Shown: piece by piece, positions 2,973 to 32,000 of the stretch
Layout of the letters: each line of letters opens with the position of its first letter
Position numbering within the stretch: position 1 is the first letter of the stretch
DNA from: Microcystis aeruginosa NIES-843
Lineage (GTDB): Bacteria > Cyanobacteriota > Cyanobacteriia > Cyanobacteriales > Microcystaceae
Reading direction: 5' to 3'
Assembly (NCBI RefSeq): GCF_000010625.1
Contig: NC_010296.1
Location: 480,001 to 512,000, forward strand
DNA: 32,000 bases
Translations under genes and position numbers: made by a program
Notes under the pieces: model-generated
Seen by the model: the letters and a program-made list of their open reading frames with translations, nothing else
The model's database searches: none
What the model was told of the DNA's origin: nothing

Positions 2973-3006
2973 GGGGTTTTAGGGTTTTAGGGTTTTAGGG
3001 TTTTAG
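2973..3006 (+). repeat. (GGGTTTTA)x4 tandem array, G-quadruplex-type motif on + strand
   Basis: Direct reading: ggggttttagggttttagggttttagggttttag. Confidence 0.9.
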
Positions 3007-3030
3007 TTGAAATTCCCCCATCTCTCCTGC

Positions 3031-3067
3031 TCCCCACTTCCCCACTTCCCCACCTCCCCACCACCCC
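3031..3067 (+). repeat. (CCCCACTT)-type tandem array; G4-type motif on - strand
   Basis: Direct reading: tccccacttccccacttccccacctccccaccacccc. The same unit recurs at 17606-17655 and 20272-20336. Confidence 0.9.
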
Positions 3068-3145
3068 AAATAACCGCGTCTCAGTTACCGCCCCGAAACT
3101 CTACAATAAAGGCAGCAGCATCAATAAACAGTAAAAAAATCAACC

Positions 3146-7593: not shown

Positions 7594-7829
7594 AGGGTTT
7601 GCTGAAAAAGTTTGTTGGTGGGGTTAGGAGTCAGGAGTCGGTCGTCAGTAGCCGGTCGTCGGGAGTTTCAGGCTTTGTTGCCCTCTCTTTTTTGTACCAA
7701 CCCATGTACTATAATAAGGATAATGCCAGGTTTTTGATGGTCCCAATCCGATTTTTTGGCACTAACATCGGATTTTAACAGGTCAAAAGCCTTATTTTAA
7801 AAGGGTTTTACCATTATTCAGCAAGCCCT
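7594..7829. mobile_element. 236-bp MITE with AGGGYTTGCTGAA termini (same terminal family as 21749-22754 and 26119-27117)
   Basis: The left end is agggtttgctgaaaaagttt. The reverse complement of the right end is agggcttgctgaataatgg. These termini match the ends of the two 1-kb intron-bearing elements, but the interior differs. Confidence 0.6.
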
Positions 7830-17497: not shown

Positions 17498-17583
17498 GGG
17501 AGGCACAATTATTTGTAGGATGGGTTAGCGGTAGCGTAACCCATGCGGGCGTTGGGTTTCATGCTTCAACCCAACCTACGTTC
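17498..17583. repeat. second copy of the 87-bp hairpin-forming dispersed element
   Basis: Near-identical to 5428-5514, with differences at only a few positions. Confidence 0.8.
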
Positions 17584-17605
17584 TCCACCTACTTTTATTT
17601 ATTCT

Positions 17606-17655
17606 CCCCACTTCCCCACTTCCCCACCTCCCCACTTCCCCACTTCCCCACTTCC
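17606..17655 (+). repeat. (CCCCACTT)n tandem array
   Basis: Direct reading: ccccacttccccacttccccacctccccacttccccacttccccacttcc. Confidence 0.9.
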
Positions 17656-17731
17656 TATTCCCTGGGACCAGAAAAGGGGTAAGATAATAAGTTTAGTGAT
17701 AAGATGACCGAATTGTAAACGGGGACTTGAT

Positions 17732-20148: not shown

Positions 20149-20423
20149 TCAGTAATCAGTAATCAGGAGTCAGGAGCCGGTCGTCAGGAGTCGGTCGTCA
20201 GGATTCAGGAGGAGATAGGGTGATAGGGTGATAGGGTGATAGGGTTTTGGGGTGATAGGGTGATGAGACAACTTCCCCACTTCCCCACTTCCCCACTTCC
20301 CCACTTCCCCACTTCCCCACTTCCCCACTTCCCCACTGATTACTGCTTACTGATAACTGAAAAATCTCCCCACTCCCCAAATCCCTTTTTTCCTTTTTCC
20401 TTTTTCCTTTTTACTTAATCGAT
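20149..20423. repeat. 275-bp composite of short tandem arrays separating secD and secF
   Basis: Reading in order gives (TCAGTAA)n, GTCAGGAG/CCGGTCGTCAGGAG, (GATAGGGT)n at 20214-20265, (CTTCCCCA)x7-8 at 20272-20336, CTGATTACTG-type heptamers and (CCTTTTT)n. Confidence 0.9.
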
Positions 20424-21356
20424 ATGGCATTTAACGTTACAAAACAGCGTAATTTTTGGTGGACAGTCTCGGCCTTGCTGACGATTGGTAGTATTTTGGC
20501 CATGGTAATTTCTTGGTTCACTATTCAAGCGCCTTTGCGACCGAGTTTAGATTTTGTTGGTGGTACGAGAATTCAGATAGAATTAGCCTGTGCCAAAAAG
20601 AATAACTGTGAAAAACCCTTAACTACTGCCGAAGTGCAAGTGATTTTAGACGAGGAGGGATTGGGTAACAGTAGTGTGCAGGTGTTGGATAAATATACTT
20701 TATCGGTGCGGACGAAAACCCTCGCAGAAGAACAGAGAACAAAATTACTCGACACCTTAAACCAGAAAATCGGTGCCTTTGACCCCGAAACCAGTCAAAT
20801 CGATACGGTCGGTCCCACCATCGGTCAAGAATTATTTAGGTCGGGATTTTTAGCTTTATTAGTGTCATTTTTTGGCATTGCTGTCTATCTAAGCTTCCGT
20901 TTTCAACGGGATTACGCTTTTTTTGCCATTGTCGCCCTGCTGCACGACGTTTTGATCACTTTAGGGGTCTTTGCGGTTTTAGGCTTAATTGCGGGGGTAG
21001 AAGTGGATAGTTTATTTTTGGTTTCCCTCTTGACAATTGTGGGCTTTTCTGTTAATGACACAGTGGTAATTTATGATCGCGTTCGGGAAAATTTTGTCAA
21101 TACCCCCGAATTATCCGTGGATGAAATTGTCGATAATGCGGTGAGTCAAACCCTAACTCGTTCGATTAATACCACCCTGACCACTTTATTGCCTCTGGTG
21201 GCGATTTTTCTCTTTGGTGGCACGACTTTAAAATATTTTGCCCTAGCTTTAATTATTGGCTTTGTAGCGGGGGCCTATTCGAGTATTTTTATCGCTAGTA
21301 CCCTACTAGCTTGGTGGCGCAGTCGTTCCCATCGACCCACACTCAATTACAGTTAG
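20424..21356 (+). CDS. secF: protein translocase subunit SecF
   Basis: The 310-aa product has SecF topology and motifs ([23 protein letters not shown]). Confidence 0.9.
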
Positions 21357-21676
21357 GATGCCATTGGTGAAGAATCAGTGGTTCTTGGATGGGTCGTAAT
21401 AGTAATTTCAACCTGTTGATTGAGACGACCCAAAATTGAGATCAAACGGTCAATAGTAAAGCGTCCCAAATTAGCACGGCGAATCTGGACAAATTCACTG
21501 TGATTAATTCCAGTTCGCACTTGAGCATCGCGGGTTGATAAGTCTTCCTTCTCCAGAACCTTGATAATTTCAGCAGCAAGCAGTGCTTTCGCTTGTCGCA
21601 CGTCCGCATCTACATCGCCAAAATCGCGGTACACATTACCGCTACCTTGTACCAGTTCAAATTGTTCTTCACTCAT
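21353..21676 (-). CDS. XRE/HTH_37-type antitoxin
   Basis: The N-terminal [10 protein letters not shown] motif and the HTH ([37 protein letters not shown]) are typical of antitoxins paired with RelE/Gp49-like toxins. Its ATG overlaps the stop of a toxin remnant (ATGA). Confidence 0.65.
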
Positions 21677-21748
21677 GAGAGTTCCTCCTTCAATCCCTTG
21701 AGCCGTGCTTTGATAACTTCGACTTCCTGTTGTGGTGTTTTGATAGTT
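21673..21748 (-). pseudogene. 3' remnant (about 24 codons) of a RelE/Gp49-like toxin gene, cut by the 1-kb element
   Basis: The minus-strand translation is ...[25 protein letters not shown]. The KTPxxE(I/V)E..A..R tail is typical of Gp49/HigB-2-type toxins. The sequence upstream of codon L is the terminus of the inserted element. Confidence 0.5.
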
Positions 21749-22754
21749 AGGGCTGGCTGAATAAATCTAAAAACCTTGCTGGATAAGACTTTTAGACTTT
21801 GTTGAAATCCAAAAGTACCAGATATGGGAGTGATCAGGGGTAAATTCAGGTACTTTTTCCCTGAAAATTAGGTAATTGACCCCCTCAAAATCGGTAAAAC
21901 CCCACACCCGTTACAGTAGAGCAGGAAGTCGCCTTCCCACCCCCTGCTTCAAAACCGGACTTACGACTTTCGCCGTATCCGGCTCCTGAGTAACTAGGCT
22001 ACTGTCATTAGTAGAATAATAATGGGAATTATTATTTCCTTGTCTATTCAACCCTCTTGGCTGTATCCCCACCAGACAAGATTGTTGGTTTTAGGGCGTA
22101 TATGACCGTTGATTGTTGCTTAGACTTCCTAGTTACCCGTCCTTTGTCAGCATATCTTTGATATTACTCAAAGCCTTGGCTTTTAAGGACATCCTCTCCC
22201 TCTATTGACTTGCGGATGGTTTCCTACTGCCCCGAACGGGCAGAGTCAATCAGGGTTACTTCGTTCCCTATAACCATTGGTTGAACCCTTAGGATGATAC
22301 TGTCCACAACAGAGTAACGGGAATGCCTTACTGATAGTGGTATGAGCTATCAGCCCCAACTCTGTTAACTTTTGTTTCGAGCCTGTCAGCCTTTTGGCTC
22401 GTGGGTGTTGACGATGGTTAATTCGTATCTTCGCCCCAGGGCTATCCATAGGTTCTGGCTCAACGGGTTTCTGATTTAGGCTATCAGATACCGCTTTTTT
22501 TTCCTCGCTCACTACCTCAGATGTACCAAGTCTAAAGCAGCAGGAAATGCCGTCACTCTAGGCATCTAGAGGACAGGACTAAGGTTATTACTAACCCGCA
22601 CCTGTAGGGTTATAAAGTTATCAAGGTACTACATTTACCAAGCGGCTAATCCTCTAAACGTCTTACTGTCTAGTTTCTAGCCAACGAATCGCACCACACC
22701 CTACACCCTACACCCTATACCCTGCCCCTAGGAAAAACTTTTTCAGCAGACCCT
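21749..22754 (-). mobile_element. 1006-bp TIR-bounded element carrying an ORF-less group II intron (copy A)
   Basis: The imperfect termini are agggctggctgaataaatc and, as the reverse complement of the right end, agggtctgctgaaaaagtt. The element is about 99 percent identical over its interior to 26119-27117. Confidence 0.7.
21916..22694 (-). ncRNA. ORF-less group II intron ribozyme, copy A (3' boundary +/- 15 nt)
   Basis: On the minus strand the 5' end is GTGCGATTCG, starting at 22694. Domain V is GAGCCGGAUACGGCGAAAGUCGUAAGUCCGGUUU (21985-21952), folding as 9 bp, an AA bulge, 5 bp and a GAAA loop, with the AGC triad. It is followed by a GCGA-capped hairpin (candidate domain VI) ending ...CUCUAC. 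No RT ORF is present. Confidence 0.75.
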
Positions 22755-23106
22755 AAGTACAGTTGGCTAAAACCGCGCGCACTTGTCGAGAATGCCTCTA
22801 CTTTCTCAGGAGAAATTCTGTCTAAGCAAGTAATCTCGGTGAACCAAGAATCCCCAAGACTTTAGGCTGGGGAGTGTTAAAAAATTGTTATGGCTAGGGG
22901 AGCTTTAAGATTGCTTCGAGGGCTTTGGTGATACAATGAGCCGTTAACTAGCTATCTCTCGGTGGCATGGAGAGCCAAATTGTCAGGAGGTCGAAGCGTG
23001 AAAACTCGGTTGCGTTGGTTTTGGGTGGCTTTAGGGGCATTTCTTGCCATTATTGGCGAGGAATTCTTGAGAAAGCTGCTGGCACTCTCTCTGTGGCGTT
23101 TTTCTG

Positions 23107-23457
23107 TTGAGTTACTGTCTGCCTGATGCTAAATATAGCGCTTCTGTCGTGGCTCAAACTCCACAACCGGCTATTGGGCAATCTCAAACAGAGCAGAAAA
23201 TTGATAATTATTTTAGCCCCATTCAACCAGATGGTACACCCAAATTAGGGATCGATCGCTGGTGGGCAACCGCAGGAGTAGATAAGGAAATTACGGTTAA
23301 CTGGACGGTAGAAGTTAAGGAAAAAGGCGAATATTATCTCCGTCTAGGTGTAGATTTAGAAAATTTTGATGTAATCAAAAGATTTAGAAAGTGGAAGCTC
23401 AGTGATCAGGTTTCTATTAAGATTTCAGATGATTATAATAGACCTGTTTCTAGCTAT
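23107..23457 (+). pseudogene. 5' segment of a disrupted Vps62/DUF946-like gene (continues at 27309)
   Basis: The ORF reads ...KISDDYNRPVSSY and then runs into the IS terminus. The same frame resumes after the CTAT duplication at 27309. Confidence 0.6.
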
Positions 23458-23645
23458 TGGGACTTAAACAAATTTCAAGCCCAAACAAAGCCTAAACTGG
23501 CTTTGTAAGCGGCAAACACATCCCGATTCTCGGTCAGCCACTCAAAGAAACGGAAAGACATCGCTGTCCGAAAAGCTTCCAAGGCTTCCACAAAAGTGTT
23601 TAAAGGTCGATTCGCCCACCGCCTTTGCAATCCCCCAGTTAACTG

Positions 23646-23758
23646 ATATCATTTTTCAAAAGTGATGACAGACTTAGTTGATTATTCCAAAGCGCAATTC
23701 CGCTCTCGGAAAGGAATTGCGCTTTTAGATGTTAGTCACGACTATTGAAAATTGGTAT
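23646..23758. mobile_element. about 113-bp MITE inside the outer IS copy (boundaries +/- 3 nt)
   Basis: It is absent from the intact copy, which reads cagttaacttatgccacagg at 24137-24156. Imperfect 22-bp TIRs are ATATCATTTTTCAAAAGTGATG and ATACCAATTTTCAATAGTCGTG. The internal 10-bp palindrome is gcgcaattcc...ggaattgcgc. Confidence 0.65.
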
Positions 23759-23963
23759 GATGCCACAGGATAAATGTATAGGCACAAAACACCAAGATAA
23801 AATGACGAAGTAAGCTTCGTTTATCCCTGACTTGATATTCCCTTAACCCTAACCATCCTTTGGCTTCTCGGTAGAATACTTCCACCCAATTTCTTTCGGT
23901 GTAAGTCCTCACTATCCACGAAGCTGTTACTGTATCTGCCTCAACTACATTGGTGATGAAATA

Positions 23964-25327
23964 GTGGGACTTAAACAAATTTCAAGCCCAAACAAAGCCT
24001 AAACTGGCTTTGTAAGCGGCAAACACATCCCGATTCTCGGTCAGCCACTCAAAGAAACGGAAAGACATCGCTGTCCGAAAAGCTTCCAAGGCTTCCACAA
24101 AAGTGTTTAAAGGTCGATTCGCCCACTGCCTTTGCAATCCCCCAGTTAACTTATGCCACAGGATAAATGTATAGGCACAAAACACCAGGATAAAATGACG
24201 AAGTAAGCTTCGTTTATCCCTGACTTGATATTCCCTTAACCCTAACCATCCTTTGGCTTCTCGGTAGAATACTTCCACCCAATTTCTTTCGGTGTAAGTC
24301 CTCACTATCCACGAAGCTGTTACTGTATCTGCCTCAACTACATTGGTGATGAAATAGTCCACCTCTGTGGCTTTTTCCATTGAACTTGCATTCATGACGA
24401 TCGCCAAGTTCCTTTCTCCTTCTAGTTGAGATATTTTCGCTCTGAATACCGCTACCCAAACCGTTTTTTCTTTATCTAGATTTAGGGTGATTTTCTCCCA
24501 ATCCTTTTCTGATAGGCTTTTTGCTAGTTGCTCAAGCTGGATTGTTTCTTCCACACCCCCTTCTTTTTCAATAATTACTTTTCGATTTTTTGCCAATCCT
24601 CCTAAGTATTTTAGCTTTCTTTCTTCCAGGGCTTTGAGAAAATTTGTGTTGTTGCCATAACCAGCATCTATTAAGACGATTTTCGGTCGATAGCCTCTGG
24701 TTAAGCTCCGGTCAATTAAATCTATCGCTATCTCTGGTTTCTTCTTAAATTCTTTGTCTTCTTTCCCCTCGGCTAAGGAACTAGCCGGTTGATAAATTTC
24801 CCTGTCTAGGGGTACACTTTTTTTGCCGTCGTAGAGATGAGTAGTGACGGCGACTATTCCGTTGTCTGTCTTGCCAATTTCTCCTAGGTACTGCCTGCCA
24901 ACTCCGGCGGTCAGATTGCCACTTTTTCGATGTCCTGAGTCATCGACAATCAGGGAAAATCCTCGGGGGATTTGCGTCTGGCGGCATTGGTTCATCACTT
25001 GCAACCGACATTCATTCACCTGACGGTCTGACCAGGGAGATTCGGTCAAAAAGTGATGTAATCGGTTATAAACTACTCCGACGGCATTATTGGCCATTTG
25101 AGTGAGGTTTTTCCGCTCACTTTCCCCTAATAATCCTCCTAAATATTGTCTGAAGCCGTTTTTTTGCGCTTCGTTTTTGAAGCAATTGTCAAACCGCCGA
25201 CACCATCGGTCAAAGCATGGGGGCATCGCGGCTGGGGTTGTCTCTTTCATCGCTGATCTTTCAACGTAAAGTGCTTACTCTTTAACGATTATACTCGATT
25301 TGATCTTTATTTGGCGTTTAAGTCCCA
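23964..25327 (-). mobile_element. inner, intact IS701-family element (1364 bp)
   Basis: Perfect 12-bp TIRs TGGGACTTAAAC are flanked by an ATAG duplication (23960-23963 and 25328-25331). The uninterrupted target ggtgatgaaatagtccacctctg is visible inside its own transposase gene at about 24348-24370. Confidence 0.85.
23982..25250 (-). CDS. IS701-family DDE transposase
   Basis: The 422-aa ORF has an N-terminal region typical of IS701 (FRQYLGGLLGESERKNLTQMA...LHHFLTESPWSD). Candidate DDE residues lie in LIVDDSG, VLIDAGYG and NWVEVFYREAKG. Confidence 0.8.
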   Translation of the reverse strand: MKETTPAAMPPCFDRWCRRFDNCFKNEAQKNGFRQYLGGLLGESERKNLTQMANNAVGVVYNRLHHFLTESPWSDRQVNECRLQVMNQCRQTQIPRGFSLIVDDSGHRKSGNLTAGVGRQYLGEIGKTDNGIVAVTTHLYDGKKSVPLDREIYQPASSLAEGKEDKEFKKKPEIAIDLIDRSLTRGYRPKIVLIDAGYGNNTNFLKALEERKLKYLGGLAKNRKVIIEKEGGVEETIQLEQLAKSLSEKDWEKITLNLDKEKTVWVAVFRAKISQLEGERNLAIVMNASSMEKATEVDYFITNVVEADTVTASWIVRTYTERNWVEVFYREAKGWLGLREYQVRDKRSLLRHFILVFCAYTFILWHKLTGGLQRQWANRPLNTFVEALEAFRTAMSFRFFEWLTENRDVFAAYKASLGFVWA

Positions 25328-25331
25328 ATAG

Positions 25332-26118
25332 TCCACCTCTGTGGCTTTTTCCATTGAACTTGCATTCATGACGATCGCCAAGTTCCTTTCTCCTTCTAGT
25401 TGAGATATTTTCGCTCTGAATACCGCTACCCAAACCGTTTTCTCTTTATCTAGATTTAGGGTGATTTTCTCCCAATCCTTTTCTGATAGGCTTTTTGCTA
25501 GTTGCTCAAGCTGGATTGTTTCTTCCACACCCCCTTCTTTTTCAATAATTACTTTTCGATTTTTTGCCAATCCTCCTAAGTATTTTAGCTTTCTTTCTTC
25601 CAGGGCTTTGAGAAAATTTGTGTTGTTGCCATAACCAGCATCTATTAAGACGATTTTCGGTCGATAGCCTCTGGTTAAGCTCCGGTCAATTAAATCTATC
25701 GCTATCTCTGGTTTCTTCTTAAATTCTTTGTCTTCTTTCCCCTCGGCTAAGGAACTAGCCGGTTGATAAATTTCCCTGTCTAGGGGGACACTTTTTTTGC
25801 CGTCGTAGAGATGAGTAGTGACGGCGACTATTCCGTTGTCTGTCTTGCCAATTTCTCCCAGGTACTGCCTGCCAACTCCGGCGGTCAGATTGCCACTTTT
25901 TCGATGTCCTGAGTCATCGACAATCAGGGAAAATCCTCGGGGGATTTGCGTCTGGCGGCATTGGTTCATCACTTGCAACCGACATTCATTCACCTGACGG
26001 TCTGACCAGGGAGATTCGGTCAAAAAGTGATGTAATCGGTTATAAACTACTCCGACGGCATTATTGGCAATTTGAGTGAGGTTTTTCCTCTCACTTTCCC
26101 CTAATAATCCTCCTAAAT
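25332..26118 (-). pseudogene. central fragment of the outer IS701 transposase gene
   Basis: Near-identical to 24352-25141 of the intact copy. Its 5' continuation lies at 27118-27227 beyond the 1-kb insert, and its 3' continuation lies at 23458-23963. Confidence 0.8.
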
Positions 26119-27117
26119 AGGGCTGGCTGAATAAATCTAAAAACCTTGTTGGATAAGACTTTTGGACTTTTTTCCCCTCAAAAAGTACCAGATATGGGAG
26201 TGATCAGGGGTAAATTCAGGGACTTTTTCCCTGAAAATTAGGTAATTGACCCCCTCAAAATCGGTAAAACCCCACACCCGTTACAGTAGAGCAGGAAGTC
26301 GCCTTCCCACCCCCTGCTTCAAAACCGGACTTACGACTTTCGCCGTATCCGGCTCCTGAGTAACTAGGCTACTGTCATTAGTAGAATAATAATGGGAATT
26401 ATTATTTCCTTGTCTATTCAACCCTCTTGGCTGTATCCCCACCAGACAAGATTGTTGGTTTTAGGGCGTATATGACCGTTGATTGTTGCTTAGACTTCCT
26501 AGTTACCCGTCCTTTGTCAGCATATCTTTGATATTACTCAAAGCCTTGGCTTTTAAGGACATCCTCTCCCTCTATTGACTTGCGGATGGTTTCCTACTGC
26601 CCCGAACGGGCAGAGTCAATCAGGGTTACTTCGTTCCCTATAACCATTGGTTGAACCATTAGGATGATACTGTCCACAACAGAGCAACGGGAATGCCTTA
26701 CTGATAGTGGTGTAAGCTATCAGCCCCAACTCTGTTAACTTTTGTTTCGAGCCTGTCAGCCTTTTGGCTCGTGGGTGTTGACGATGGTTAATTCGTATCT
26801 TCGCCCCAGGGCTATCCATAAGTTCTGGCTCAACGGGTTTCTGATTTAGGCTATCAGATACCGCTTTTTTTTCCTCGCTCACTACCTCAGATGTACCAAG
26901 TCTAAAGCAGCAGGAAATGCCGTCACTCTAGGCATCTAGAGGACAGGACTAAGGTTATTACTAACCCGCACCTGTAGGGTTATAAAGTTATCAAGGTACT
27001 ACATTTACCAAGCGGCTAATCCTCTAAACGTCTTACTGTCTAGTTTCTAGCCAACGAATCGCACCACACCCCACACCCTACACCCTGCCCCTAGGAAAAA
27101 CTTTTTCAGCAGACCCT
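26119..27117 (-). mobile_element. 999-bp TIR-bounded element carrying an ORF-less group II intron (copy B)
   Basis: It is inserted between cctcctaaat and aaatattgtctg of the transposase gene, and AAAT is duplicated at 26115-26118 and 27118-27121. The intact copy reads cctcctaaatattgtctg at 25136-25153. Confidence 0.8.
26286..27064 (-). ncRNA. ORF-less group II intron ribozyme, copy B (3' boundary +/- 15 nt)
   Basis: It has the same GTGCGATTCG 5' end (27064) and an identical domain V (26355-26322). By hand alignment I count five nucleotide differences from copy A. Confidence 0.75.
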
Positions 27118-27308
27118 AAATATTGTCTGAAGCCGTTTTTTTGCGCTTCGTTTTTGAAGCAATTGTCAAACCGCCGACACCATCGGTCAAAGCAGGGAGG
27201 CATCGCAGCTGGGGTTGTCTCTTTCATCGCTGATCTTTCAACGTAAAGTGCTTATTCTATAACAATTATACTCTATTATACTCTTGTTGATCGTTTAAGT
27301 CCCACTAT

Positions 27309-30591: not shown

Positions 30592-30766
30592 TTGGTAAAC
30601 GATATAAGCATGGAGCAAAATTGGCAATCGGGGAATCCATTACCAATGGCAAAACAAGCTGAGATCGATCCTCGTAAATTCACTGAATACTCTATGAATC
30701 CATTCAATACTAACAATCAAGGAAAATGGCAAGCATTTATGATTCTTGGATATAATATAGAAAGTT
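30592..30766 (+). CDS. 5' exon of a DUF6883-like gene interrupted by a group II intron
   Basis: AEIDPRKFTEYSMNPFNTNNQGKWQAFMILGYNIES fits the pattern I recall for DUF6883 (K..EY.LN....GK...F...GY). The ORF continues only 8 codons into the intron before a stop. The start is either TTG 30592 or ATG 30610. Confidence 0.45.
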
Positions 30767-32000
30767 GTGCGAAACGTTTAGGCATGAAATAGGGCTGAAA
30801 TGCCCGAAATAACCGCCTAGTAAGGTCTTCAGTCCCCCGACTGAATCTAAGAGGTCAACCCAGACCAACCTTATAACTGTTTATATGTCCCAACGTTTAG
30901 TATCACCCGATACCAAATCAGGCAAGGGGACTCAAGGTCAATACACTTTGTAACAATCAATCACAAATCGTTACAAAGCTGAGAGTAACGGCGATAGCCA
31001 CCCCCAGATTCAGAAGTCACAACTCTGGGACTGAAGCGGGGAACGGAAGGCTCCTAGATGTAACCTAACATCCAAACCGAGACCACTGCCAACCATCCAA
31101 GATTAGGCGTGAGCCAAATGTCCGACTTGAACCATCGTAAACATTGAGTAGTGAAATAGGTTGACACACTACATTCAAAAGAATAAGGGGAATAGTGAGG
31201 GTCTTACCTTTCCCACTCACACAGACCTTTAAAGTACCCCGGTGGAGAGGACAAATCTAAAGATGGAATGCCCATATAAACGGAACGTTATAAACCCTTT
31301 TAGGCTCTGAGTATCGGTCGAAATACCCAGTAGCGATAAGTGTAAGCGCAAGCCTTCAAGGGTGTGAGATGTAACCAAAAGCCAACGCCTGACAGTAATA
31401 ATCAGGATATGCTGACGGGTTACGGTTTGATTGTAAGGATAGAGTCTAGTAGGAGTCTATATGACGAAATCGAGAGAAGGTAAAGGATTCGGGAAACCGA
31501 AAACCACTAAGACTACGAATGTATGGAAAACTATCAATTGGGCAAAAGTCCAAAGATATGTTTTCAAGCTCCAAAAGAGGATATACCAAGCGGCTAAATC
31601 GGGACAGGATGCAAAGGTTAGAAGGTTGCAACGTCTATTGGTGAAATCATACTATGCTCGTTTATTAGCAGTTCGCAAAGTAACCCAAGATAATCAAGGA
31701 AAGAAAACAGCAGGAGTCGATGGAATGATAGCAATATCCCCAGAACAAAGGCTAAATCTAACCGAAGAAATCAAAGGAACACTTAAAGCAAAACCGCTAA
31801 GAAGGGTATGGATTCCTAAACCCGGCAGGGATGAAAAACGCCCATTAGGAATACCAACCATCAAAGACAGAGCTAGACAAGCGTTGATTAAATCGGCACT
31901 TGAACCAGAATGGGAGTCAAAAATGGAAGGAACCAGCTATGGTTTCCGACCCGGAAGGTCTGACCATGACGCTATATCAAGGATATACATCACCATTAAT
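30767..32000 (+). mobile_element. full-length-type group II intron (5' end and IEP start; 3' part outside window)
   Basis: The consensus 5' end GTGCG lies at 30767-30771. About 690 nt of non-coding sequence (domains I-III expected) precede a reverse transcriptase/maturase ORF. Confidence 0.75.
31461..32000 (+). CDS. group II intron reverse transcriptase/maturase (IEP), N-terminal 180 codons, runs off the window
   Basis: The frame is open from ATG 31461 to the window end, so it is absent from the ORF track because it has no stop. The translation is MTKSREGKGFGKP...QKRIYQAAKSGQDAKVRRLQRLLVKSYYARLLAVRKVTQDNQGKKTAGVDG...RRVWIPKPGRDEKRPLGIPTIKDRARQALIKSALEPEWE...YGFRPGRSDHDA, covering RT motifs 0-3. 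Confidence 0.85.
   Translation, partial: MTKSREGKGFGKPKTTKTTNVWKTINWAKVQRYVFKLQKRIYQAAKSGQDAKVRRLQRLLVKSYYARLLAVRKVTQDNQGKKTAGVDGMIAISPEQRLNLTEEIKGTLKAKPLRRVWIPKPGRDEKRPLGIPTIKDRARQALIKSALEPEWESKMEGTSYGFRPGRSDHDAISRIYITIN

Follow-up and report, generated by a model that had tools for sequence, protein, structure and literature searches.

A group II intron without an open reading frame in heptamer arrays of a Microcystis miniature inverted-repeat transposable element: probably two nested, independent mobile elements

We analysed a 32,000-nt stretch of the genome of Microcystis aeruginosa NIES-843 (contig NC_010296.1, positions 480,001 to 512,000; hereafter, the window, the first letter of which is position 1), and in particular two units, copies A and B, in which a group II intron lacking an open reading frame (ORF) lies between the arms of a transposable element of the miniature inverted-repeat type (MITE). 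With a probability of about 85%, we consider copies A and B to be two nested, independent mobile elements each, the intron having retrohomed into heptamer arrays carried by the MITE. An initial annotation, made from the letters of the window, had described intron and carrier as one fused, repeated unit. We favor two elements because the intron occupies none of the 123 MITE copies among the matches listed in our census, because introns and arms have diverged unequally, because the intron-bearing arms are polyphyletic, and because the register of the intron within the array varies; the intron is, furthermore, found outside MITEs.

Results

A complete group II intron without an ORF

The insert of copy A is a genuine group II intron, complete and ORF-less. 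As proposed in the initial annotation, a 60-nt arm is followed by an intron starting at position 22694, which was then put at ~780 nt and is 785 nt long; the second arm, given as 167 nt, actually measures 161 nt. Two covariance models had been suggested for verification. RF00029, which covers domains V and VI, matches positions 21987-21910 of the minus strand over the full model length (55 bits, E = 2e-8; gathering score, 40), and group-II-D1D4-2 gives a weak, partial, sub-threshold match at 22548-22481 (minus strand) in a permissive scan, in which a plastid-type domain V model also matches the intron. The 5′ end at position 22694 reads GTGCGATTCG (GUGCGAUUCG in a longer reading), with a GUGCG start, and the 3′ end at position 21910 reads ...CUACUGUAAC. 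The hallmarks of group II introns are all present, namely, a GUGYG 5′ end, a 34-nt domain V, a GNRA loop, and, 7-8 nt before the 3′ end, a bulged A. The early placement of domain V at 21985-21952, with an AGC triad, a bulge and a GAAA loop, holds, and the GNRA-capped hairpin noticed after it is domain VI, capped by a GCGA loop, in which the A at intron position 778 (window position 21917), 7 nt from the 3′ end, is bulged.

Folding of the intron, likewise suggested as a check together with a search for exon-binding sites (EBS), yielded six domains (Table 1), and both EBS1 and EBS2 were found. The unconstrained minimum free energy (MFE) of the 785 nt is -259.5 kcal/mol (z = -5.1 against shuffled sequences); the intron copies being identical, a covariation test of the fold is precluded. 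The segments UAUGG and CCUAAG in domain I, which we take to form the classical GAAA-tetraloop receptor, one half each, are consistent with the GAAA loop of domain V. The early reading that the unit encodes no reverse transcriptase (RT) was borne out: a tblastn search, with a related intron's RT as the query, detected no RT similarity anywhere in the copy A unit, the sole ORF of which, 88 aa long, has no Pfam match on record. The intron RNA probably still splices.

Table 1. Coordinates of the features in the window
Feature	Position	Strand	Evidence and details
Copy A unit	22754-21749	-	60-nt arm, 785-nt insert, 161-nt arm
ORF-less group II intron, copy A, complete, 785 nt	21910..22694	-	RF00029, D1D4-2, fold, identical copies elsewhere
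Domain I (approximate)	22258..22689	-	MFE helices, intron nt ~6-437; aligns with that of L001, a full-length relative
Domain II (approximate)	22198..22255	-	MFE helices, intron nt 440-497
Domain III (approximate)	22139..22190	-	MFE helices, intron nt 505-556
Domain IV stub, 151 nt, 11-bp closing helix, no ORF	21988..22138	-	MFE helices, intron nt 557-707; tblastn
Domain V, 34 nt, AGC triad, bulge, GAAA loop	21952..21985	-	Covariance-model alignments; intron nt 709-744 in the fold
Domain VI, GCGA loop, bulged branch-point A	21913..21947	-	Covariance model and fold, intron nt 748-782
UAUGG, half of an 11-nt GAAA-tetraloop-receptor-like motif (zeta′), putative	22446..22450	-	Read from sequence
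CCUAAG, other half of the tetraloop-receptor-like motif, putative	22288..22293	-	Read from sequence
EBS2, ACACCC, intron nt 287-292	22403..22408	-	Pairs with exon -14 to -9 (GGGTGT), perfect complement
EBS1 loop CUCAUACCA, 9 nt on an 8-bp stem, intron nt 349-357	22338..22346	-	Fold and complementarity
MITE 5′ arm, copy A, 60 nt	22695..22754	-	Terminal repeat 22738-22754; (A)GGGTRT array 22695-22723
MITE 3′ arm, copy A, 161 nt	21749..21909	-	Begins GGGTGTGGGGTTTTACC; terminal repeat 21749-21765
Copy B unit, same MITE family	26119..27117	-	3′ arm 26119-26279, intron 26280-27064, 5′ arm 27065-27117
Intron-free MITE, sister subfamily, 236 bp	7594..7829	+	Same terminal repeats and TA flanks; AGGAGTC-type repeats replace the GGGTGT array
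Different, RT-encoding group II intron, 5′ part	30766..32000	+	Starts GTGCGAAACG; RT ORF from 31461, runs off the window
HTH_37 antitoxin gene, directly downstream of copy A	21353..21676	-	Pfam

The target spans two successive heptamers

The insertion target of the intron is GGGTGTRGGGTGTR|GG, and it matches both EBS2 (ACACCC) and the EBS1 loop (CAUACC). All 11 distinct 5′ exons have GGGTGTRGGGTGTR at positions -14 to -1, and all 12 distinct 3′ exons have GG at positions +1 and +2. The initial annotation had proposed that ACACCC at 22403-22408 pairs with the GGGTGT repeats upstream of the 5′ splice site; the two are indeed complementary, the segment being, by its position, EBS2 rather than EBS1. 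Pairing with exon positions -6 to -1 (GGUGUG) is provided by CAUACC (22339-22344), with one G-U pair. The assignment of ACACCC to EBS2 and of CAUACC to EBS1 follows from their order and from the alignment with a full-length relative, L001 (see below), whose matching segments fit its own 5′ exon. Owing to the heptamer period, the intron-binding sites IBS2 and IBS1 fall on two successive repeat units. Unoccupied consensus target sites are plentiful, with 359 in 1.1 Mb of sampled Microcystis contigs, a sample enriched for the MITE.

Intron copies in other Microcystis genomes

Among species-representative genomes, all exact domain V matches come from one M. aeruginosa metagenome-assembled genome (MAG), in which nine contigs end inside the intron, their 102-117 nt of intron being 100% identical to the window. 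Five of the nine run into MITE 3′ arms; the contexts of the other four are a GGGGAGT-type repeat, coding-like sequence (the 3′ flank of L006), a GGGCTGT array, and GGGTGTGGGGAAGG.... That the contigs ending ~100-117 nt into the intron represent a full-length variant was considered and rejected, such ends being the ordinary k-mer overhang of an assembler at a repeat. An exact-match protein look-up with the spurious 88-aa ORF led to seven more loci in ENA and NCBI assemblies, each with a complete 785-nt intron that is 100% identical to copy A in six cases and 99.7% identical in the seventh, and two further copies (L038 and L065) surfaced among the loci of the MITE scan. Across copies, copy B included, the intron is 99.4-100% identical. 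It resides in plain GGGGTGT arrays at L013, L015, L018 and L019, next to a MITE-like 5′ end only at L014 and L017, and next to a MITE 3′ arm only at L016.

Once orthologous loci are merged, ~14 distinct insertion sites can be counted, seven of them with a recognisable MITE 3′ arm and about half outside a complete MITE. Orthologous loci lacking the intron were found for L013 (L136) and L015 (L052), and orthologous loci lacking the MITE for L007 (L138), L012 (L105) and copy A (ten genomes, L140-L149). The flanking genes are 99-100% identical to loci in NCBI assemblies, one of which shares its contig with a protein assigned at source to Microcystis wesenbergii TW10; the GC content is ~43%, and viral contigs scanned with the intron 5′ end gave no match.

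Several sites have one intron 3′ flank joined to differing 5′ flanks across strains (L016 and copy B; L017, L018, L019 and L038; L015 and L052), which suggests ectopic recombination between identical intron copies or between heptamer arrays. At L065 (12471-13900), the intron is cut after nt 140 by an insertion sequence (IS) with an ISL3-like transposase, yielding an IS in an intron in a heptamer array.

An abundant MITE family, normally free of introns

The carrier is an abundant, old, ~215-bp Microcystis MITE family that is normally intron-free. With the intron removed, copy A is a non-coding sequence of 221 nt bounded by terminal inverted repeats (TIRs), under the 600-bp size criterion for MITEs. 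Its arm ends read TAGGGTCTGCTGAAAAAG... and ...TTTATTCAGCCAGCCCTA; the imperfect inverted repeats reported at the outer ends in the initial annotation are, thus, the TIRs of a MITE, matching at 12 of 17 positions in copy A and much better in the family consensus (TAGGGTYTGCTGAA / TTCAGCARRCCCTA). The terminal motif occurs three times in the window, against 0.16 occurrences expected by chance. Copy A had also been assigned to the same type as the MITE at 7594-7829, and this is correct as far as the terminal repeats, common to both, are concerned; the interiors differ.

For a census of the family, metagenome contigs were scanned with the conserved 3′-arm block, giving listed matches on at least 120 contigs, with at least 123 copies in varied genomic contexts. 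Among the matches listed, none of the 123 copies contains the intron, and ~116 are complete, with the 5′ terminal repeat TAGGGTYTGCTGAAAAAG or its variant TAGGGTTTGCGGCAAAAAG. The listed intron-free MITEs carry an uninterrupted array of 2-9 (R)GGGTGT heptamers, some of them GGGGGTT, followed by GGGTTTTACC..., and their median length, from GGG to CCC, is 213 nt. TA flanks the MITE at 30 of 31 5′ ends and at 25 of 31 3′ ends, and could be part of the terminal repeat itself; at the filled and empty orthologous sites (L007/L138, L012/L105, and copy A/L140-L149), the junctions are blurred by local divergence or rearrangement. No autonomous IS with the terminal repeats of the MITE was found in the small sample of ~1.1 Mb of Microcystis contigs, which yielded only pairs of neighbouring MITEs, and no link to these repeats was seen for the DDE_5 transposase ORFs between copies A and B. 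In several intron-free MITEs (L026, L082, L097 and L102), a small palindromic insert, GACCCCCCCAACCCCCCCGACATCGGGGGGG, lies inside the heptamer array and may represent another tiny mobile or hairpin element using this array.

Intron and arms have diverged unequally

Between the two copies in the window, 5 of 785 intron positions (0.6%) and 9 of 161 3′-arm positions (5.6%) differ (Fisher p = 9e-5). The RF00029 match of copy B (26357-26280, minus strand) is identical to that of copy A. All five intron substitutions are private to copy B, two of them in the EBS1 loop, of which the resulting variant (CUUACACCA) keeps the pairing, and two at the putative tetraloop receptor; the sequence of its internal 88-aa ORF is absent elsewhere in the collection searched. 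The same disparity is apparent across copies, the MITE arms being 81-90% identical to the copy A arm and the 3′ parts of the intron 100% identical. Compared pairwise, intron-bearing arms are 77-94% alike, and, for six of the seven, the nearest relative is an intron-free MITE; for instance, the copy A 3′ arm is 97.4% identical to L103, an intron-free MITE at a different locus. The register of the intron relative to GGGTTTTACC in the intron-bearing MITEs is variable as well (|GGGTTTTACC, |GGGTGTAGGGTTTTACC or |GGGTGTAGGGTGTAGGGTTTTACC, that is, 0 to 2 heptamer units). These divergences indicate that the intron has spread recently relative to the old, diverged MITE.

Loss of the RT gene and a candidate RT in trans

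The full-length relative, L001, is a 2427-nt intron on Fremyella/Tolypothrix plasmids that codes for an RT of 607 aa, the C-terminus of which is of HNH type. Over its first ~90 nt and in domain V, the copy A intron is ~77% similar to L001, and domain I aligns along its length, with shared blocks. Downstream of the shared GAUAUGCUGAC block, domain IV retains a short remnant (...GUCUAAGCAACAAUCAACGG) reminiscent of the opening codons of the RT gene in L001; with this remnant, the intron looks like a deletion derivative of an ORF-containing, chloroplast-like, IIB-type intron. It likewise has the appearance of a IIB-type, chloroplast-like intron itself, a class assigned on grounds other than RT phylogeny, the intron being without an RT. 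A distant-mode blastn search of a plasmid collection returned no copies of the intron and only distant relatives (the first ~90 nt, 77%, on Nostocales plasmids); a further plasmid match, L002, was rejected as an unrelated deletion derivative inside a transposase gene.

To be mobile, the ORF-less intron would need the RT/maturase of an ORF-containing intron of the same genome, acting in trans. An unproven candidate source is the different group II intron at 30766-32000, the RT of which is 59% identical to the L001 RT (tblastn) and 94% identical to a group II intron RT of Microcystis wesenbergii, with Arthrospira/Limnospira proteins as the next-closest relatives; most database relatives are short or partial. 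Rfam models gave no domain I-IV or domain V/VI matches in 30600-32000 or in the M. wesenbergii homologue. The locus of the latter holds a run of N, and the 3′ half of the candidate helper was not recovered; this assembly gap suggests that the RT-encoding intron is multicopy, too.

Genomic neighbourhood and other repeats

Of the Gp49 toxin gene that is the partner of the HTH_37 antitoxin gene, only about the last 20 codons are left beside copy A (~21674-21744). In ten other Microcystis genomes (L140-L149), the antitoxin gene is preceded by an intact gene for a 128-aa Gp49-family toxin, by RuvC and by an epimerase, with no MITE. A simple interruption of the toxin gene by copy A was considered and rejected: the 3′ flank alone is orthologous, and the upstream flank (22755-23300) is unrelated. 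Thus, with a truncated toxin gene on one side and unrelated sequence on the other, copy A marks a rearrangement breakpoint.

The interval that separates the two copies contains transposase ORFs of the DDE_5 family (23982-25250, with a fragment at 25307-26023). The region 23455-25626 contains perfect internal direct repeats of 193-300 nt spaced 393-974 nt apart, and a 193-nt repeat, 91% identical, is located just beyond copy B (27115-27307); together, these sequences have the appearance of an IS that was duplicated or rearranged. The octamer TCCCCACT, which reads GGGGAAGT on the opposite strand, forms arrays at intergenic positions 2999-3097, 17581-17671 and 20250-20356. In other Microcystis contigs, many of the intron and MITE sites have related, G-rich short tandem repeats beside them (GGGGAAGT, GGGCTGT, GGGGGTT and GGGGAGA); all these repeats are of G-quadruplex-type composition. 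Dispersed repeats of 77-90 nt, 86-93% identical (5425-5514/17494-17583 and 4553-4629/28270-28346), are unrelated to the intron and probably represent further small repeat families.

Discussion

We propose that copies A and B arose by insertion of one mobile element into another. The outer element is a MITE with a short tandem (R)GGGTGT array just inside its 5′ terminal repeat, and the inner one a 785-nt, IIB-type, chloroplast-like intron that presumably lost its RT/maturase ORF by a deletion in domain IV. Target choice would be made by EBS2 pairing with exon positions -14 to -9 and EBS1 with -6 to -1, on two successive heptamers, and the intron would then insert at GGGTGTRGGGTGTR|GG by reverse splicing and reverse transcription, i.e., retrohoming. 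Any such array could serve as a target, whether inside a MITE or alone in an intergenic region, so that the MITE::intron arrangement would have arisen repeatedly, through separate insertions into pre-existing MITE copies. Splicing would ligate the exons of copies A and B as ...GGGTGTG|GGGTGTGGGG....

The arrangement within the window might, at first sight, be taken for a fused composite that multiplies by DNA transposition through its terminal repeats and a transposase acting in trans, as would befit copies A and B, in both of which the intron occupies the same position and the two terminal repeats and the TA flanks are present; in principle, a 1-kb element with intact terminal repeats should remain a transposase substrate. 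We nevertheless regard this origin as very improbable, given that the census found the intron in none of the listed MITE copies, that a complete MITE is missing from about half of the distinct intron sites, that arms 77-94% alike are mixed among those of intron-free MITEs and enclose introns that are 99.4-100% identical, and that the register of the intron in the array differs between intron-bearing copies. Co-occurrence of the parts as a unit in the majority of copies and equal divergence of arm and insert, the marks of an IStron-like element, were both absent. Carriage by the MITE transposase is not the origin of the copies observed here; that a MITE-lodged intron is, on rare occasions, carried to a new locus in this way strikes us as having a slim chance of being true. 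If it did occur, an RT-less retroelement would gain a second, DNA-level route of spread that requires no RT and seeds donor copies. An insertion in the founder of one MITE subfamily, followed by precise deletion from most of its descendants, is scarcely credible: more than 100 precise losses would be implausible, the arms are far older than the intron, and the latter also occupies arrays without a MITE. All seven MITE copies seen beside an intron do carry it at the array, as a founder insertion would predict, in a sample that was gathered by an intron search and is, hence, biased.

Another alternative dispenses with retrohoming altogether and views the intron as an immobile relic whose copies were spread over heptamer arrays by duplication, ectopic recombination and gene conversion. 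In its favor, the search brought no cognate RT to light, and the discordance of 5′ and 3′ flanks between strains at several sites testifies that recombination does happen at these elements. This alternative is unlikely in view of the exact junctions at ~14 sites (GUGCG right after R at -1, GG right after AAC) and of the invariant 14-nt upstream motif that fits EBS1 and EBS2, the hallmark of reverse splicing. Unrelated flanks, for instance the coding-like one on the 3′ side at L006, would not acquire such exact intron-exon borders through recombination.

Several observations weigh against recent retrohoming of the intron into the arrays as well. Our search turned up no cognate RT for the ORF-less intron; the sole RT in the window belongs to an intron without blastn-level similarity to it, and the ORF remnant in domain IV looks closer to the type found in Fremyella and on Nostocales plasmids than to the RT of the window. 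One of the EBS1 pairs is G-U, two sites have a C-A mismatch at position -1, and copy B, with its substitutions at the putative receptor, may be an inactive or decaying copy. Short-read assemblies break at repeats, so that the occupancy of 0 of 123 among the matches listed may understate the true value, and gene conversion could partly explain the high identity of the introns. Finally, splicing and mobility are both deduced here from sequence.

Two nested, independent elements replace the idea of a new chimera with a documented case of a known process. On this interpretation, an ORF-less group II intron recently spread through Microcystis by means of a G-rich heptanucleotide microsatellite, the arrays of which, being numerous, intergenic and carried by an abundant MITE, would provide harmless landing pads, and the family offers a natural example of group II intron proliferation without damage to genes. 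Moreover, the identical 785-nt copies appear to act as substrates for ectopic recombination, which bears on the plasticity of Microcystis genomes.

Relation to known systems

The carrier family could be MaeMITEa of M. aeruginosa NIES-843 (219 bp, 240 copies; Kaneko et al. 2007, PMC2779907), a guess made from size and abundance alone: MaeMITEa, too, is abundant, and its ~219 bp compare with 221 bp for the arms of copy A and with a median of 213 nt for the sampled family. That paper (PMC2779907) makes no mention of introns in MITEs. G-rich heptamer repeats with G-quadruplex potential are over-represented in cyanobacteria (PMC4692102). A literature search for Microcystis group II introns, introns in MITEs, and introns targeting heptanucleotide or other simple-sequence repeats returned nothing specific, so that the intron family in Microcystis and its simple-sequence-repeat target may be unreported; the mechanism is conventional.

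IStrons, such as CdISt1, in which a group I intron is fused to the ends of an IS200/605-type transposon (PMC4853749), similarly bring together a ribozyme intron and parts of a DNA transposon. Unlike the situation in Microcystis, where no MITE among the matches listed contains the intron and where the intron is of group II rather than group I, the parts of IStrons always travel together.

A closer parallel is provided by the ORF-less TeI3 introns of Thermosynechococcus elongatus, which are spliced and mobilised by the RTs of related introns (Mohr, Ghanem and Lambowitz 2010, PMC2882425). These, too, are chloroplast-like introns of IIB type from a cyanobacterium, with the RT ORF lost through a domain IV deletion and remnants of the ORF ends kept, and near-identical copies at multiple sites, each with an EBS/IBS match, are a further point of likeness, the ~14 sites in Microcystis having one invariant 14-nt target. 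By contrast, the TeI3 families diverged in their EBS, whereas the Microcystis copies share a single heptamer-repeat target, and the trans-acting RT and the mobility of TeI3 were demonstrated experimentally, whereas mobility in Microcystis is inferred and the RT is a candidate.

According to the initial annotation, the combination of intron and transposon was not known to have been described. However, homing into multicopy elements is known from Sinorhizobium meliloti, where ISRm2011-2 is the homing target of RmInt1 and the ISRm17 inverted repeats are that of RmInt2 (PMC4615759). The Sinorhizobium introns come with an RT gene of their own and target transposase-encoding IS, whereas the Microcystis intron is ORF-less, its carrier is a non-autonomous MITE, and its target is a simple-sequence repeat that also exists outside the transposon. 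What the Sinorhizobium and Microcystis introns have in common is a homing site inside a multicopy DNA transposable element, which supplies abundant, harmless targets and makes the intron-in-transposon arrangement recur across the genome.

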